Virus record (IMG/VR): IMGVR_UViG_3300003702_000496
Span: 19,253 to 83,252 of that record
Origin: a virus
Direction: 5' to 3' (one strand)
Length of the DNA: 64,000 nucleotides
Shown here: piece by piece, positions 1 to 60,691 of the stretch
How positions within the stretch are numbered: position 1 is the stretch's first letter
Layout of the letters: the number at the start of each line of letters is the position of its first letter
Notes under the pieces: model-generated
Database searches by the model: none
Seen by the model: the letters and a program-made list of their open reading frames with translations, nothing else
What the model was told of the DNA's origin: nothing
Program-made: the position numbers and the translations under genes

Positions 1-1192
1 TACTTGGTGCTGTATGCGTCATAGCGCCTGCCGTTTCTGATAGATAAAGAGTAGACCCCGCAGTCCATGCCCAAGTATCGTCACGAATAAAACCGTGAAG
101 CAATATTGTTCCCGTCGCTGTATCGCTAATTGCGGCAGGCGCAATGCCTATTACTCTAGCAGTAGCATATGCACTCGCATCTGCCTCAACCACCTCTTGT
201 GTGACCGTGTGAACGCAAACCAAATCAAACGCTGATATTGCCCCACCAGCCAACATTTGCGCTGATAGTCCTGTATAGGTATGGTCTGCTCCTGCGAGCA
301 ACGGGGTTGACATGTCAATAGTGCTTGCATCTGAAAGACGCAAGATTGACGTTCCTGTAGGAATTTGAAAAACAGTTGTATCCGCATCGTTCTTAACGGT
401 TACATCATTTGTTGAACCCTGCCCTGTGAGGATAAGACCTTCAGCGGCAGTATAGCCCATCGTCGCATTGTCGCCAGCCGACGTATCCCCGTCTGCATTT
501 ACGGTAGAAGCTGTTACATCCCCAACAATATCAACATTGGTAGTTCCTGTCGCTACCGTTAAAACATCCGCATCTGCGTCGTTTTTAATAGTTACGTCAT
601 TGGTGGAGCCTTGACCAGTGAGGATCAGTCCTTCGGCAGCGGTATAGCCTATCGCAGAATTATCCCCCGCGGCCGTATCTCCAGCAGGCTCCACTGTACC
701 TGTAGCAGTAACATTCCCAGTTACAGCCATTGCTGTTGCTTCAATAAAAGTTTTAATACGAGATGCAGCAGTTTTTCTATTAGTACCGCCAGCTCCATCA
801 TCTACAATAAACAAGTCAGCGGCAACAACAGCAGCACCAATATCGGTTCCACCATCAATGTCTAAATCATCAATATCACCATCATATGTAGAAGCGGCAT
901 AAGTTTTAAGACGAGAAGCAGTAACCTTTCTATTAGTTCCACCAGCACCATCATCAATAATGAATAGATCAGCGTCAACAATAGCAGCACCTATATCTGT
1001 GCCACCATCAATATCTAATTCGGCAATAGCGACAGTTCCATCTGCTAAAGCTGTAGTTCCTGTAACATTTAATGCTCCAGCAACCGTTAATGTCACACCA
1101 CTTGGAACAGTAAAAGTATCACCAGAATCCCCAATGGTCGTCTCATTTCCGACGCCGGCCGGTGAGATTTTATCTACTTTTAATTCACTCAT
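1..1192 (-). CDS. Tail fibre / virion structural protein, runs off the left edge (missing from ORF track)
   Basis: Hand translation from ATG at 1192: MSELKVDKISPAGVGNETTIGDSGDTFTVPSG..., two LDIDGGTDIGAA..DDGAGGTNRK repeats and two GYTAAEGLILTGQGSTNDVT repeats; N-terminus nearly identical to ORF 6609-7517; open to base 1. Confidence 0.8.
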   Translation of the reverse strand, partial: MSELKVDKISPAGVGNETTIGDSGDTFTVPSGVTLTVAGALNVTGTTALADGTVAIAELDIDGGTDIGAAIVDADLFIIDDGAGGTNRKVTASRLKTYAASTYDGDIDDLDIDGGTDIGAAVVAADLFIVDDGAGGTNRKTAASRIKTFIEATAMAVTGNVTATGTVEPAGDTAAGDNSAIGYTAAEGLILTGQGSTNDVTIKNDADADVLTVATGTTNVDIVGDVTASTVNADGDTSAGDNATMGYTAAEGLILTGQGSTNDVTVKNDADTTVFQIPTGTSILRLSDASTIDMSTPLLAGADHTYTGLSAQMLAGGAISAFDLVCVHTVTQEVVEADASAYATARVIGIAPAAISDTATGTILLHGFIRDDTWAWTAGSTLYLSETAGAMTHTAPS

Positions 1193-18941: not shown

Positions 18942-19655
18942 TTAGACGATCCACTCGGCCATATTTTTAAATTCTTCGCTTATACCCGAAGCATTTCTCT
19001 TTTCCATTCCCAAGATCAACTGCCACGGATTCATTCCAAGATTCCCTGCAAGAATAATTCTCTCATGGTCACATTGTTGTTCTGATACTTGATGTCTTAT
19101 CCAGCCAGGAAACAATACCATGTTTCCTTTTATCGGAGCAATCTGATATGATGCATCCTCAAAGATTAACGGCGCACAGTTTTCACAACATTCTACATTA
19201 TATACCCAACTCCATATTTGAGGCCAATGCTCATGTAACTTGGTATAATTTCCTTTGGTATATATCGCGCCCCAACAATCATATGGCATTAACGGAACTC
19301 CCTGTCTTGGAGAATTGTCATACGCCAATTCTATTGCCATACGACACACTTCCATAAAATCTGAATTAGTTTCATGCATATACCAGCCAGTCATACTTGC
19401 TTGCACATTAGTTGAAGATTTTTGAACATCACCAATATCCCTACATGTTTGTACAAGTCTTTTCTGAAGTTCTTCGTTTGAACAATCTTTTTGTACAACA
19501 GGATACTTTACACGAAAAGATTGAGAGTGTGGATTGGTTGTTAGTTGTCTAAGTTTCTTTTCCTCTAATATATTTTCTTTTTCTATATTAGATACAAGTG
19601 CTTTTAGATGGTTCCTACTCATGGTAATGATGGTTCCTCTGGATACCAATACCAT
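18942..19655 (-). CDS. 2OG-Fe(II) oxygenase-like protein
   Basis: HEHWP...LFPGWIRH.V...ERIILAGN; true start probably ATG near 19622. Confidence 0.8.
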   Translation of the reverse strand: MVLVSRGTIITMSRNHLKALVSNIEKENILEEKKLRQLTTNPHSQSFRVKYPVVQKDCSNEELQKRLVQTCRDIGDVQKSSTNVQASMTGWYMHETNSDFMEVCRMAIELAYDNSPRQGVPLMPYDCWGAIYTKGNYTKLHEHWPQIWSWVYNVECCENCAPLIFEDASYQIAPIKGNMVLFPGWIRHQVSEQQCDHERIILAGNLGMNPWQLILGMEKRNASGISEEFKNMAEWIV

Positions 19656-24256: not shown

Positions 24257-24472
24257 CTATTTGTTCCCTTTAAAATTAACCCAATCCTCAGAGTGTGTTA
24301 CTGATTTTTCATTCGGTAATTTTTTAAGTTCGGCCTTGAGCCATTCTGCGTCATATATCGGTTCACTCTTACAAATCTGAGAGATCAACTTATGTACATT
24401 TAATTCATATACATCTTTTTCTTTATCCATAATATTTCCTTTAGACACCTTATTGCATTTATAGATTATCAA
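24257..24472 (-). CDS. Small hypothetical protein
   Basis: Likely start MDKEKD after AAGGA RBS. Confidence 0.55.
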   Translation of the reverse strand: MIIYKCNKVSKGNIMDKEKDVYELNVHKLISQICKSEPIYDAEWLKAELKKLPNEKSVTHSEDWVNFKGNK

Positions 24473-24503
24473 AGACGGCCCAGTTTTAAGGCCCCCTTTT
24501 TTT

Positions 24504-24561
24504 TAAAAAGTGGAGAGGGGTCAATTGATTTTTCATATTGACTACGAAGAAGACCCCTCTC
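24504..24561 (-). terminator. Probable intrinsic terminator
   Basis: GAGAGGGGTC/GACCCCTCTC inverted repeat followed by a T-run on the minus strand. Confidence 0.55.
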
Positions 24562-24571
24562 CTACTCTCAG

Positions 24572-24832
24572 CTAGGCAGAAGCAGCTAGTGCTTGATACC
24601 CTGCAGCCACAACAGAGCGAGGCGCCGTGCCAAGACGATACTTGCTATAAGTCTCGCCGAAGCTGTTAGTACGCTGATTGAGGAACACAGGATAACCCTG
24701 CATACGAAGAGAGCTAATAACAGCTCGCGGATTCGCCACACCATAACGTGCGGTAATCTGCTTAGCAGTTAGCTCAGCTCCACCCTCTAGAGCGGTAATG
24801 ACCTTCTCGGTCTTAGTTGTAATTGTCGTCAT
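24572..24832 (-). CDS. Winged helix-turn-helix DNA-binding protein
   Basis: LTAKQITARYGVANPRAVISSLRMQGY...YRLG; AAGGAG RBS before ATG 24832. Confidence 0.75.
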   Translation of the reverse strand: MTTITTKTEKVITALEGGAELTAKQITARYGVANPRAVISSLRMQGYPVFLNQRTNSFGETYSKYRLGTAPRSVVAAGYQALAASA

Positions 24833-24907
24833 AAAATACTCCTTACATGACATATCAAGAGCATGCTTATTCGCATACCCATTCAGTAGACCCTATGCCT
24901 ACATGAA

Positions 24908-25330
24908 TAAAAAGGAAGAGCGCCAGGACACATAGCAATTCAGCAATATTCGCAATCCCACTCGGGGCGCTCTTCAGTATAAGGACCGCTTCTCAGTCAA
25001 CACGACTTGACCTTACCTACCTACCATCCATTACAGTAAGCAGTCCTTTCTATATTTTCATTCTGGGCCTTGGCGTCCCTCCACCTATTGGCTTCATCGG
25101 GTTTCGAGCTGCGTCCCTCACGCCCATACCCCCAGACCAGAAATATAATTCTCTGGGAGCACCCAATATTCCTTCACCGTAGCTCCATTTCTTACCTTAC
25201 TGGGAAGGCGGAGCGGTTTAACAGTGTTACAGTGTCAACTTCATTGGTTCACAAAACCTTTCAGAGGAGAGACTAGCAGTGTCATGTGACCTAACAGGGG
25301 CGTCCCGTTCCAGAAGTCTCTCTCTCATTA
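24908..25330 (-). ncRNA. Candidate ~420-nt multi-domain structured RNA / leader
   Basis: GC-richer non-coding tract after a sigma70 promoter with several long stems and a final 10-bp stem plus U-tract. Confidence 0.5.
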
Positions 25331-25336
25331 TGTCTA

Positions 25337-25365
25337 ATCATAACACAAAACAGAAGCTTTGTCAA
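25337..25365 (-). promoter_or_regulatory. sigma70-like early promoter
   Basis: TTGACA-17-TATGAT, A/T UP tract upstream. Confidence 0.8.
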
Positions 25366-25390
25366 GTAAAAAATAAATCTTTTTTTCAGT

Positions 25391-25408
25391 TGTGATAAAA
25401 ATGTCACA
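25391..25408. promoter_or_regulatory. Palindromic operator TGTGA-N8-TCACA
   Basis: TGTGATAAAAATGTCACA; related copies at 25933-25950 and 34857-34874. Confidence 0.6.
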
Positions 25409-25411
25409 CTA

Positions 25412-25612
25412 TCACGGCCGGCCGAGCCTATCCGCTTCCCGCGCTTCGACAAGGTCTTTAAAGAGCCGGGAGGTAGGTGTCGGGCCATAGGTCCATAAGG
25501 ACCCTGTAAGGTACTTGCCTACATGAGCGCTGACATATTCAGCGTCTGAGGTAGGGCTATGAGCAGCTGCGGCTTTGATACCGAGTGCGATGGCCTTTTC
25601 AGTCGCGGTCAT
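25412..25612 (-). CDS. Hypothetical early protein
   Basis: Abuts upstream ORF. Confidence 0.55.
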   Translation of the reverse strand: MTATEKAIALGIKAAAAHSPTSDAEYVSAHVGKYLTGSLWTYGPTPTSRLFKDLVEAREADRLGRP

Positions 25613-25849
25613 TTAGATACCGGCCCGTTCTAGAGCATGTTTAAAGAGCAACATCGCGCCCTCATCCGTATCAAAACCATCCTCAGAAGCAAAGTCCATA
25701 GAGCTCGATCCATTTACTTCGGGAGCAATACCCTTATCCAAAAGAATATCGGCTACGCCATCAACAGTGTTCGCCCAAGCTGGGTCAGAAGAACCATCCT
25801 CGTACAAATACAAACCACCGTTTGATGCACCAATAAAATTAATCGCCAT
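25613..25849 (-). CDS. Hypothetical early protein
   Basis: AAGGAAAGAG RBS, directly after promoter; SSSMDFA.E.GF motif. Confidence 0.65.
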   Translation of the reverse strand: MAINFIGASNGGLYLYEDGSSDPAWANTVDGVADILLDKGIAPEVNGSSSMDFASEDGFDTDEGAMLLFKHALERAGI

Positions 25850-25878
25850 GAATCTCTTTCCTTTTTCGATTATGTCTT

Positions 25879-25907: not shown

Positions 25908-26015
25908 CCAAAAAATATATTTTCTTTTTGAGTGTGTCATATATATCACACTGCTCGGTTTGATGAAGACACTAAGGCATCCTTCCTTGACCTTTACACC
26001 AAAATTGATGCTGGT

Positions 26016-53304: not shown

Positions 53305-53380
53305 TGGTGCCGAAGGGAAGATTCAAACTCCCGACCTGTTGATTACAAATCAACTGTTCTATCAACTGAACTACTTCGGC
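53305..53380 (-). tRNA. tRNA-Thr(UGU)
   Basis: 76-nt cloverleaf, GCCGAAG/CTTCGGC acceptor, GTTGA-TTTGTAA-TCAAC anticodon arm, encoded CCA. Confidence 0.93.
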
Positions 53381-60181: not shown

Positions 60182-60362
60182 TGTGGGGTTAACCATAGAC
60201 CCCACACGGATGTATTTCGGCATCACCCTAGATGTCACTAGGCTAAAGTGAATAATCTGTCTATCGTAAAATAGGCCTCCAACTTCAGCATCAACTCTTC
60301 CTTTCTGTATAACCAAGGGCTTCCCAAGGCTTAACTCAATACTCGCCTTAGTGCGTTAGTAT
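60182..60362 (-). other. Structured element with 17-codon ORF downstream of tmRNA
   Basis: Hairpins flanking AGAAAGGAAG-RBS and MLKLEAYFTIDRLFTLA (60238-60291). Confidence 0.4.
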
Positions 60363-60365
60363 TAA

Positions 60366-60655
60366 GTGGTAGGTATTCTGTTGCCAGGAACCTACCGAAC
60401 CCCGACAGACTATGCAGCTAGTGCATAATCCTCAAATGCCTCATTATCGTTGGCACTTATTATTTTGACCGATAAGGTGGTCAATCCACAGTTCTCCACG
60501 TTCCTATACATTGTCAGTCGATCCTAGTTCGCCCCCATCAAGAGTACACCTTGAAATATTACTTTCGTCAGTTACTCACCCGATGTACTCATGGTGGAGG
60601 CGACGGGTACTGCCCCCGTGTCCTGTACAATTTTCAGTTCGTATCATCAAACTGT
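60366..60655 (-). ncRNA. ssrA: Permuted two-piece tmRNA; tag (A)ANDNEAFEDYALAA
   Basis: Acceptor piece GGACACGGGGGCAGTACCCGTCGCCTCCACCA (60623-60592) precedes coding piece GGGGGCGAACTAGGATCGAC (from 60536); G3-U70; tag at 60454-60410; CCTGGCAACAGAA hairpin. Confidence 0.93.
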
Positions 60656-60660
60656 AACTA

Positions 60661-60691
60661 TATTTATACCATATTAAACCAGTTTTGTCAA
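60661..60691 (-). promoter_or_regulatory. Overlapping sigma70 and T4-late promoter for tmRNA
   Basis: TTGACA-17-TATAAA whose -10 is a full TATAAATA. Confidence 0.75.

Follow-up and report, generated by a model that had tools for sequence, protein, structure and literature searches.

What kind of gene, if any, occupies the GC-rich stretch of about 420 nt that lies between a strong promoter and a small regulator gene in a contig from an uncultured virus? The locus belongs to a segment of 64,000 nt (positions 19,253 to 83,252 of IMG/VR record IMGVR_UViG_3300003702_000496; hereafter the window), and all coordinates of the RNA locus are given in the numbering of this window, on the minus strand. 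By direct reading of the sequence we confirmed what the original prediction had described there, namely a stretch free of open reading frames (ORFs) behind a consensus sigma-70-type promoter with an upstream dyad. We consider it probable that positions 25330-24909 (-) are a single-copy, stand-alone structured non-coding RNA (ncRNA) gene of ~420 nt, early-expressed, stable and trans-acting, and that it represents an undescribed family of uncultured marine, largely deep-sea, T4-like myophages.

The family was reached through the winged helix-turn-helix (wHTH) gene that follows the RNA. Its protein has 254 relatives in IMG/VR with unconserved flanks, and reading of their upstream regions led to a locus, L062 (IMGVR_UViG_2786546487_000005), that was also the single, weak match when the RNA was compared by blastn with 80 wHTH loci. 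The 270 nt between promoter and wHTH gene in L062 are homologous to the centre of the window RNA, with a stem changed on both strands and an identical 15-nt loop. A first scan with the 15-mer GAATTATATTTCTGG gave mostly chance matches and three real ones. Pattern scans built on this loop (the loop of hairpin H4 below) and on GGGACGC(AGC) recovered 5 loci in IMG/VR, at least 65 in metagenome contigs and, in a set of genomes from 185,579 species, a single contig; human-gut contigs with a 44-nt match, together with all but one of the genome-contig matches, were rejected as unrelated sequences. The family thus totals at least 71 loci and at least 55 distinct cores, nearly all marine, and is phage-specific in that only one contig of this 185,579-species genome set has both motifs, L435 (PAWD01000051.1, assigned to the metagenome-assembled genome 'Thaumarchaeota archaeon SAT137'). 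L435 and L062 have an identical RNA core and are both 19,724 bp long, and L435 is probably a mis-binned phage contig. Searches of 50,697 GenBank phage records by blastn and tblastn with the RNA and the wHTH protein gave no match. One close relative of the window RNA among these matches is L391, at 93% identity.

All members share a core of ~190 nt, made up of a pseudoknot of helices H1, H2 and H3, hairpins H4 and H6, a variable insert and the 3' motif AAGGCCCAGAAU (Table 1). Two sequence types of the pseudoknot domain share one topology: 43 distinct cores have the major type and 7, that of the window among them, have the minor type, and all seven minor-type members build the same fold from different sequences. 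RNAalifold analysis of 49 cores including the window predicted H3, H4 and H6 de novo, with compensatory changes at 16 of 24 pairs. The stem covariation that the original prediction had proposed as a check was indeed observed when pairs were counted on the structure written out for the 43 major-type cores, a set that does not include the window: 96.1% of cells form standard pairs, compared with 86.6% after shuffling of the 3' partners (0 of 500 shuffles reached the observed value) and 31-51% when the partners were slid by 1-3 columns. Changes on both sides were found at 18 pairs (138 cells) in these cores, distributed as 8 of 9 pairs in H4, 6 of 8 in H3 and 2 of 5 in H1, and 99% of the H4 cells are paired. 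The minor type and the optional domain 1 were judged by per-sequence folds; the MAFFT alignments are one column off in some stems. Stems specific to the window (domain 1, module D, module E and H1-H3) covary in relatives as well. A covariance model, R1, built from 43 sequences with the window excluded, matched 25055-25251 (-) at 100.3 bits (E 3.9e-23) over its full positions 1-193. This was the only R1 match in the window, which makes the RNA gene single-copy there, and among the wHTH loci only L062 matched.

Table 1 Features of the RNA locus and associated genes in the 64-kb window
Feature	Position	Strand	Description
Candidate operator	25391-25408	-	Dyad TGTGACATTTTTATCACA; starts 43 nt upstream of the first -35 base
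Sigma-70-type promoter	25337-25365	-	TTGACA 25365-25360, 17-nt spacer, TG-extended TATGAT 25342-25337; 11/12 to consensus
Domain 1 (optional)	25264-25326	-	Three-way junction; P1 GAGAGAGACU/AGUCUCUC; two hairpins; conserved strands CUUCUGGA, UAGG, CACUGCUAG
Pseudoknot domain	25162-25226	-	H1 and H2 hairpin whose apical loop pairs downstream as H3
H1	25226-25222 with 25179-25175	-	CACUG/CGGUG, by homology
H2	25214-25210 with 25186-25182	-	GCUCC/GGAGC
H3	25204-25198 with 25168-25162	-	Apical loop CCCAGUA with UAUUGGG; H-type pseudoknot, crosses H1/H2
Hairpin H4	25127-25161	-	10-bp stem UGCUCCCAGA/UCUGGGGGUA (25161-25152 with 25136-25127)
Hairpin H6	25106-25119	-	Stem GAG/CUC, invariant 8-nt loop GGACGCAG; sole conserved 'GAGGGACGC' copy
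Variable insert (H7 position)	25072-25105	-	Contains the window's second GGGACGC copy
Invariant 3' motif	25060-25071	-	AAGGCCCAGAAU; in every true member, with one exception, L391
Module D (optional)	24981-25048	-	11-bp stem AAGGACUGCUU/AAGCGGUCCUU (25048-25038 with 24991-24981); encloses ACUGUAAUGGAUGGUAGGUAGGUAAGG, a small hairpin and CUGAG
Terminator domain, module E	24909-24975	-	10-bp stem GAAGAGCGCC/GGCGCUCUUC (24975-24966 with 24924-24915), conserved interior, C-U5
wHTH cassette leader, 76 nt	24833-24908	-	Two hairpins, then GUCAUGUAAGGAG; no promoter recognised
Winged-helix gene, 86 aa	24572-24832	-	PF14090 HTH_39, E 1.8e-5; phrog_4973
Permuted tmRNA	60319-60687	-	Complete, two-piece, alpha-type; ARAGORN; Rfam RF01849, 138 bits; tag ANDNEAFEDYALAA

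Three elements of the core hardly change. The H4 loop GAAUUAUAUUUCUGG (25151-25137), 15 nt long, is near-invariant across the family and is carried by a stem of 9-10 bp. The H6 loop is held by a stem of 3-4 bp that alternates in relatives between GAG/CUC, GGG/CCC, GGAG/CUCC and UGG/CCA. The 3' motif follows an insert whose sequences are unrelated between relatives; measured between the end of the GGGACGCAG motif and GCCCAGA, an interval that includes this insert, the spacing varies from 12 to 146 nt. Even L391 has a different insert from the window at the H7 position, and it keeps H1 through two pair-preserving changes (U-G to C-G and G-C to G-U). Its 3' motif reads GGCCUAGAAU, with one C-to-U change. 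Within the 3' motif, CCAGAA (25066-25061) is complementary to UUCUGG of the H4 loop (25142-25137), and a second pseudoknot between the two is possible from this complementarity; in L391 the pairing would survive as G-U.

Most of the stems read by eye in the original prediction hold up: the GAGACU/AGUCUC helix at 25320-25315 with 25274-25269 encloses two hairpins, and CUCC/GGAG (now H2), the H4 stem, and the 11-bp and 10-bp stems with the terminal C-U5 are all real. Two proposals had to be revised. The outer pairing of the second domain, read as ACCG/CGGU, is by homology CACUG/CGGUG, and the UGGGC/GCCCA junction is not conserved, as its 5' partner varies in relatives (GGC, AGC, AUC) while its 3' strand is part of the invariant AAGGCCCAGAAU.

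Optional modules surround the core. Domain 1 is a three-way junction on the 5' side and module D a G-rich internal-loop hairpin; a pseudoknot module on the 3' side, a GAGGGAGUUCGUCGCCCCUC hairpin and long terminator domains of two kinds, their interiors conserved, complete the set, from which the window carries domain 1, module D and terminator type E. Domain 1 is present in at least 15 relatives, with its hairpins swapped for different sequences and P1 varied to GGGUCU/AGACCC or GGGACU/AGUCCC. Module D was found in three relatives with wholly different outer stems (CCCCUCUCU/AGAGAGGGG, CCAGACCUAAC/GUUAGGUCUGG) around an unchanged inner sequence, which gives three unrelated sequences for this stem, and module E shows covariation of its outer stem in L314, L344 and L383 (three variants). 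In L391 module D is precisely absent and the insert differs, indicating that modules are gained and lost as units. The invariant ACUGUAAUGGAUGGUAGGUAGGUAAGG strand inside module D (25011-25037, minus strand; also in L338, L377 and L381) has five GG tracts 2-3 nt apart and may, judged by its sequence, fold into a two-tier G-quadruplex or bind a protein.

The RNA does not appear to be translated. No ORF longer than 38 aa was found on the minus strand between 25336 and 24854, where two ORFs of 33 and 38 aa occur, and no codon-position GC signal was detected over 25330-24909. ORFs that cross the core in relatives run in different frames, and the spacings between conserved motifs (12, 13, 18, 31, 32, 33, 47, 50, 52, 53 and 146) fall into all three residue classes modulo 3. 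Because it is ORF-free, has no conserved frame and shows spacings in all these classes, we conclude that the RNA is non-coding.

A TTGACA-N17-TGnTAnnAT promoter precedes, among the matches listed, every family locus that has enough upstream DNA, and the distance from its start down to the ATATTTCTGG part of the H4 loop is 130-275 nt (219 nt in the window). The same extended form occurs four times in the window against 0.34 expected by chance. From its position we place the transcription start near 25330. The dyad consensus TGTGAC-ATATAT-GYMACA lies upstream of 18 of the 49 distinct family promoters among these matches, 43-65 nt from the -35 hexamer, and is a perfect palindrome in L420; judged by its sequence, it is plausibly an operator, perhaps for the co-transcribed wHTH protein. 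A second dyad of this type is present in the window at 25916-25933 (-). At the other side, the RNA stretch is closed by a GC-rich stem of 10 bp that encloses 41 nt and is followed by C-U5, which suggests a 3' end near 24909; a program scan for terminators misses this hairpin, its loop being longer than 8 nt.

What follows the RNA differs from locus to locus. In a census of 53 distinct family loci among the matches listed, the first downstream feature is a T4-type late-promoter-like element (CTATAAATG), with no other gene in the unit, at 22 loci, a tRNA-like RNA without a promoter of its own at 17, the wHTH gene at 9 (and at 4 more after a tRNA-like RNA), and another sigma-70 promoter at 3. This variation indicates a stand-alone RNA gene and not a dedicated attenuator or riboswitch of the wHTH gene, an explanation that we rejected also because the terminator is separated from the core. 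Clustering of neighbouring genes at the family loci revealed no recurrent protein partner besides wHTH. The tRNA-like element lies ~20 nt past the U run in ~17 relatives (for example L141 3570-3660 and L181 8691-8778, minus strand), is promoter-less and has a GGUUCGACUCC T arm; its best Rfam match is tRNA-Sec, at 20 bits, far below threshold. Promoter-less genes in such a position imply leakage through the terminator domain or processing of the primary transcript, and either would also explain expression of wHTH in the window.

The downstream gene itself was correctly called in the original prediction, as it encodes a protein matching PF14090 HTH_39. We infer that, through read-through, this gene shares an early transcription unit with the RNA but is no part of the RNA. 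A strong terminator follows it in the window. Its leader is conserved, preceding wHTH genes behind other members of the RNA family, and behind genes for tRNAs or transfer-messenger RNA (tmRNA) what is shared of the leader is GUCAUGAUAAGGAG, which immediately precedes the start codon. A tmRNA or tRNA called by ARAGORN lies within 130 nt upstream of wHTH, behind the same kind of promoter, in 17 of 55 distinct wHTH loci. Gene and leader travel as a promoter-less cassette behind the local stable RNA gene (L028, L038, L042, L311, L313, L318, L331 and L395).

We propose that host RNA polymerase would transcribe the RNA early in infection and that it may accumulate as a stable molecule beside the tRNA-like RNAs, tmRNA and tRNAs of the phage (and, in one relative, a manA RNA). 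It would act in trans, with the invariant H4 loop, H6 loop and 3' strand as the functional centre. The pseudoknot between loop and 3' strand probably gathers these invariant elements into a site, either a binding surface or an active centre, whose partner would be a protein, a second RNA or further copies of the RNA itself. The accessory modules might stabilise the fold from the periphery, as they do in other large RNAs. Read-through of the terminator domain would provide low-level expression of promoter-less downstream genes, here the wHTH regulator.

Several observations weigh against this proposal. The minimum free energy of the 436-nt stretch, folded as a single sequence against shuffled controls, is unexceptional (z = -1.55; 7 of 100 shuffles fold as well), and the significance of the structure comes from the homologs. 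The scans required the H4 loop and GGGACGCAGC, so that the invariance of both is partly by construction; the 3' motif AAGGCCCAGAAU was not required by the metagenome scan and is still invariant save for the C-to-U change in L391. The proposed pairing of H4 loop and 3' strand shows no covariation, because both strands are invariant, and in the window we found no excess of trans targets complementary to the H4 loop with up to 3 mismatches (8 versus 5.5 expected). Contigs in the RNA libraries of two studies include family members, major-type cores among them, and contigs from four RNA-library runs contain fragments of relatives, a weak hint of expression, as these are assembled contigs in which ends, strand and level are unreadable, gaps in coverage carry no information and DNA carry-over is possible. 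In addition, L062 and L394 have no terminator and their core runs straight into the wHTH ribosome-binding site, and in L333, L342, L367 and L411 a small ORF is nested between the core and the terminator domain; both arrangements fit a role in cis.

Such a role is the main rival explanation. A cis-acting element heading the early operon, either a riboswitch-like sensor or a processive antitermination RNA of the put or EAR kind, would act on the transcribing polymerase or on the terminator domain and so set read-through to promoter-less genes (tRNA-like RNA, wHTH, small ORFs), and it would agree with the fact that the RNA always begins right at a strong promoter and that promoter-less genes follow its hairpin and U run (tRNA-like RNA at 17 loci, wHTH at 13). 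HK022 put and Bacillus EAR directly follow an early or operon promoter and precede terminators that the polymerase has to pass, and the promoter-proximal position of the family RNA fits this pattern. However, put and EAR (70-120 nt) always precede the genes they serve, and we detected no homology to them, whereas at 22 of the 53 family loci nothing lies between the RNA end and the next promoter-like element, leaving nothing there to regulate. Moreover, the gap between core and terminator domain, filled with variable modules, spans 0 to >250 nt, an arrangement that does not resemble an expression platform; the interior of the terminator domain is itself conserved; no riboswitch or antitermination family of Rfam matches; and in other phages the wHTH cassette is served by tmRNA or tRNA promoters. 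We therefore regard a cis-acting element as unlikely, albeit as the alternative to be taken most seriously.

A special case of the trans-acting reading is an RNA-only assembly like those of ROOL and GOLLD, a large multimer that would hold or shield, for instance, the neighbouring tRNA-like RNAs. Judged by context, ROOL (RF03087) and GOLLD (RF01998) are the closest known systems, followed by permuted tmRNA, with no detectable homology to either. ROOL and GOLLD are large, pseudoknot-rich RNAs of phages or prophages that often lie near tRNA-type genes, have no known partner protein gene and are of unknown function, and GOLLD combines a universally conserved part with a variable, less conserved one and is sometimes linked to tRNAs (PMC12286853). 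The genomic setting of the marine-phage RNA is the same (PMC12286853), and no conserved protein partner gene adjoins it. On the other hand, covariance models of ROOL, GOLLD and OLE did not match the window region or 11 relatives, no palindromic kissing loop is evident, and the marine-phage RNA is smaller (a 190-nt core, 250-550 nt in total) with other invariant motifs, a comparison made by sequence and context alone. The carriers differ too, being marine T4-like myophages here and phages of Lactobacillales, the rumen or mycobacteria there. By this analogy an RNA-only assembly is conceivable, yet we think it improbable.

The original prediction had read the locus as a large phage ncRNA or a cluster of small RNAs, possibly a protein sponge, or as an attenuator of the HTH regulator, and these proposals fared differently. 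The large ncRNA stands, as one conserved unit from promoter to terminator whose stems covary across ~55 distinct relatives among the matches listed. The modules are inherited as one unit, and a cluster of small RNAs may exist at the level of processing. The attenuator does not stand as the purpose of the RNA, given the census above. A sponge of the CsrB or RsmZ type, capturing a protein with repeated GAGGGACGC loops, was suggested by three GGGACGC copies within a 230-nt stretch of the RNA (four in the 64-kb window against 1.2 expected), but it is contradicted by the family alignment and we consider it very improbable. Only the H6 copy with its GGACGCAG loop is conserved; most family members have a single copy, and the other two copies are lineage-specific, the domain-1 copy reading GGGAUGC and the third being absent even in L391. 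The motif also differs from ANGGA, the motif of CsrA sites. Least credible of all is a decayed or unrecognised coding sequence, small ORFs or a pseudogene in an imported GC-rich cassette, for although the island is GC-rich including its real ORFs and the 33- and 38-aa ORFs are present, there is no conserved frame, insert lengths fall in all classes modulo 3, stem substitutions are compensatory and codon-position GC signal is lacking.

Comparison with known RNAs supports the novelty of the family. No family of Rfam 15 matched the RNA in the window region and 11 relatives, at gathering and E-value thresholds, and its motifs are absent from the literature that we searched, a search that did not extend to the candidate list of the survey of 10,006 phage RNA candidates (PMC10690425). 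The family is thus new at the level of RNA families as judged from Rfam 15, GenBank phages and this literature, while the kind of genomic role has precedents. RNase P RNA, signal recognition particle RNA, 6S RNA, group I and II introns, hepatitis delta virus-like and other small ribozymes, and the c-di-GMP-I, ZTP and glutamine riboswitches were set aside because they misfit in their motifs and were not called by Rfam. A tmRNA was likewise rejected, since ARAGORN calls only 60319-60687 and tmRNA models give no match in the region, E values up to 10 included. The permuted tmRNA of marine myophages is nevertheless comparable, as it occupies the same slot in related phages (early sigma-70 promoter, structured RNA, small regulator gene), is also pseudoknotted and also has a conserved strand containing CAGAAU near its 3' end; in OM43 phage Melnitz, for example, a two-piece tmRNA (ssrA) closely follows an early promoter and precedes a regulator gene (PMC9004378). 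In contrast to tmRNA, the family RNA has no tRNA-like acceptor/T-arm domain, CCA end or tag reading frame.

The manA and glnA motifs, both structured RNAs, have been found almost exclusively in marine metagenomes and in T4-like cyanophages or pelagiphages (PMC2864571; PMC9004378). They are elements of 60-190 nt in the 5' untranslated regions of particular gene classes, whereas the family RNA has its own promoter and terminator and no fixed downstream gene; the RNA itself matches neither glnA (RF01739) nor manA (RF01745). Among T4-type phages, the RNA-gene cluster of T4 contains two stable RNAs of unknown function, species 1 and 2 (rnaC and rnaD). These tRNA-like RNAs measure 120-140 nt; the family RNA, three times larger, is pseudoknotted and does not resemble a tRNA, and species 1 has better counterparts in the tRNA-like elements behind many family members.

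Large, intricate RNAs with strong covariation are rare, and RNase P, tmRNA, OLE, GOLLD and ROOL each revealed unusual biochemistry or assemblies. The present family, with a core of double-pseudoknot type, three invariant elements and swappable modules, occurs in abundant uncultured marine, largely deep-sea, T4-like phages, beside the tRNA-like RNAs and tmRNA that they carry. It may be, although we would stop short of calling this probable, the founding example of a new ornate class of phage RNA with a biochemical activity of its own, acting as a ribozyme, as an RNA-only assembly or as a specific decoy or scaffold for a factor of host translation or RNA metabolism, deployed early together with tRNAs and tmRNA. 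At 190-420 nt the RNA is a synthesisable target for structure probing, cryo-electron microscopy and pull-downs. These phages also appear to keep an early-expressed 'stable RNA operon', the last gene of which is often a small winged-helix regulator.

The source record is an 83-kb IMG/VR viral contig with an estimated completeness of 46%. The window encodes T4-type baseplate genes (hub/lysozyme, wedge and tube-cap, by PHROG matches) and, besides the tmRNA, a tRNA-Thr(UGU) gene at 53305-53380 (-). The RNA lies in an island (24550-25850) with a GC content of 0.45-0.55, compared with ~0.35 in the surrounding phage genome. Because the real ORFs of the island are GC-rich as well, GC content is no marker of RNA structure here. 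Upstream of the RNA, 25613-25849 (-) encodes a 78-aa acidic protein, and a 66-aa ORF lies between this gene and the RNA promoter; for both small proteins we found no relatives in IMG/VR (pattern method), no Pfam match and no PHROG family. A homologue of the 78-aa protein, with the C-terminus ...DEGAMLL.K.A.E..*, is encoded in L141 (2950-3078) directly upstream of the RNA promoter, the 66-aa ORF being missing there.

Other elements were observed around the early RNA unit. The ORF nested in L333, L342, L367 and L411 has a ribosome-binding site, lies 100-400 nt past the 3' motif and after the 3' pseudoknot module, and its product looks coiled-coil (...LQIEQLSSDVRELT...). Downstream of the family member in L383, at 979-1150 (-), there is a manA RNA motif (RF01745, 57.1 bits against a threshold of 55.2) together with a tRNA, which indicates that phage RNA islands combine several structured RNAs. 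The early RNA unit closes, in the window (24400-24500, minus strand) and behind most family members, with a conserved GGGGGCCUUAAAACUGG...GCC hairpin; next comes AAUCUAUAAAUGCAAUAAGGUGUCU, in which the T4-type late-promoter core TATAAAT is present.

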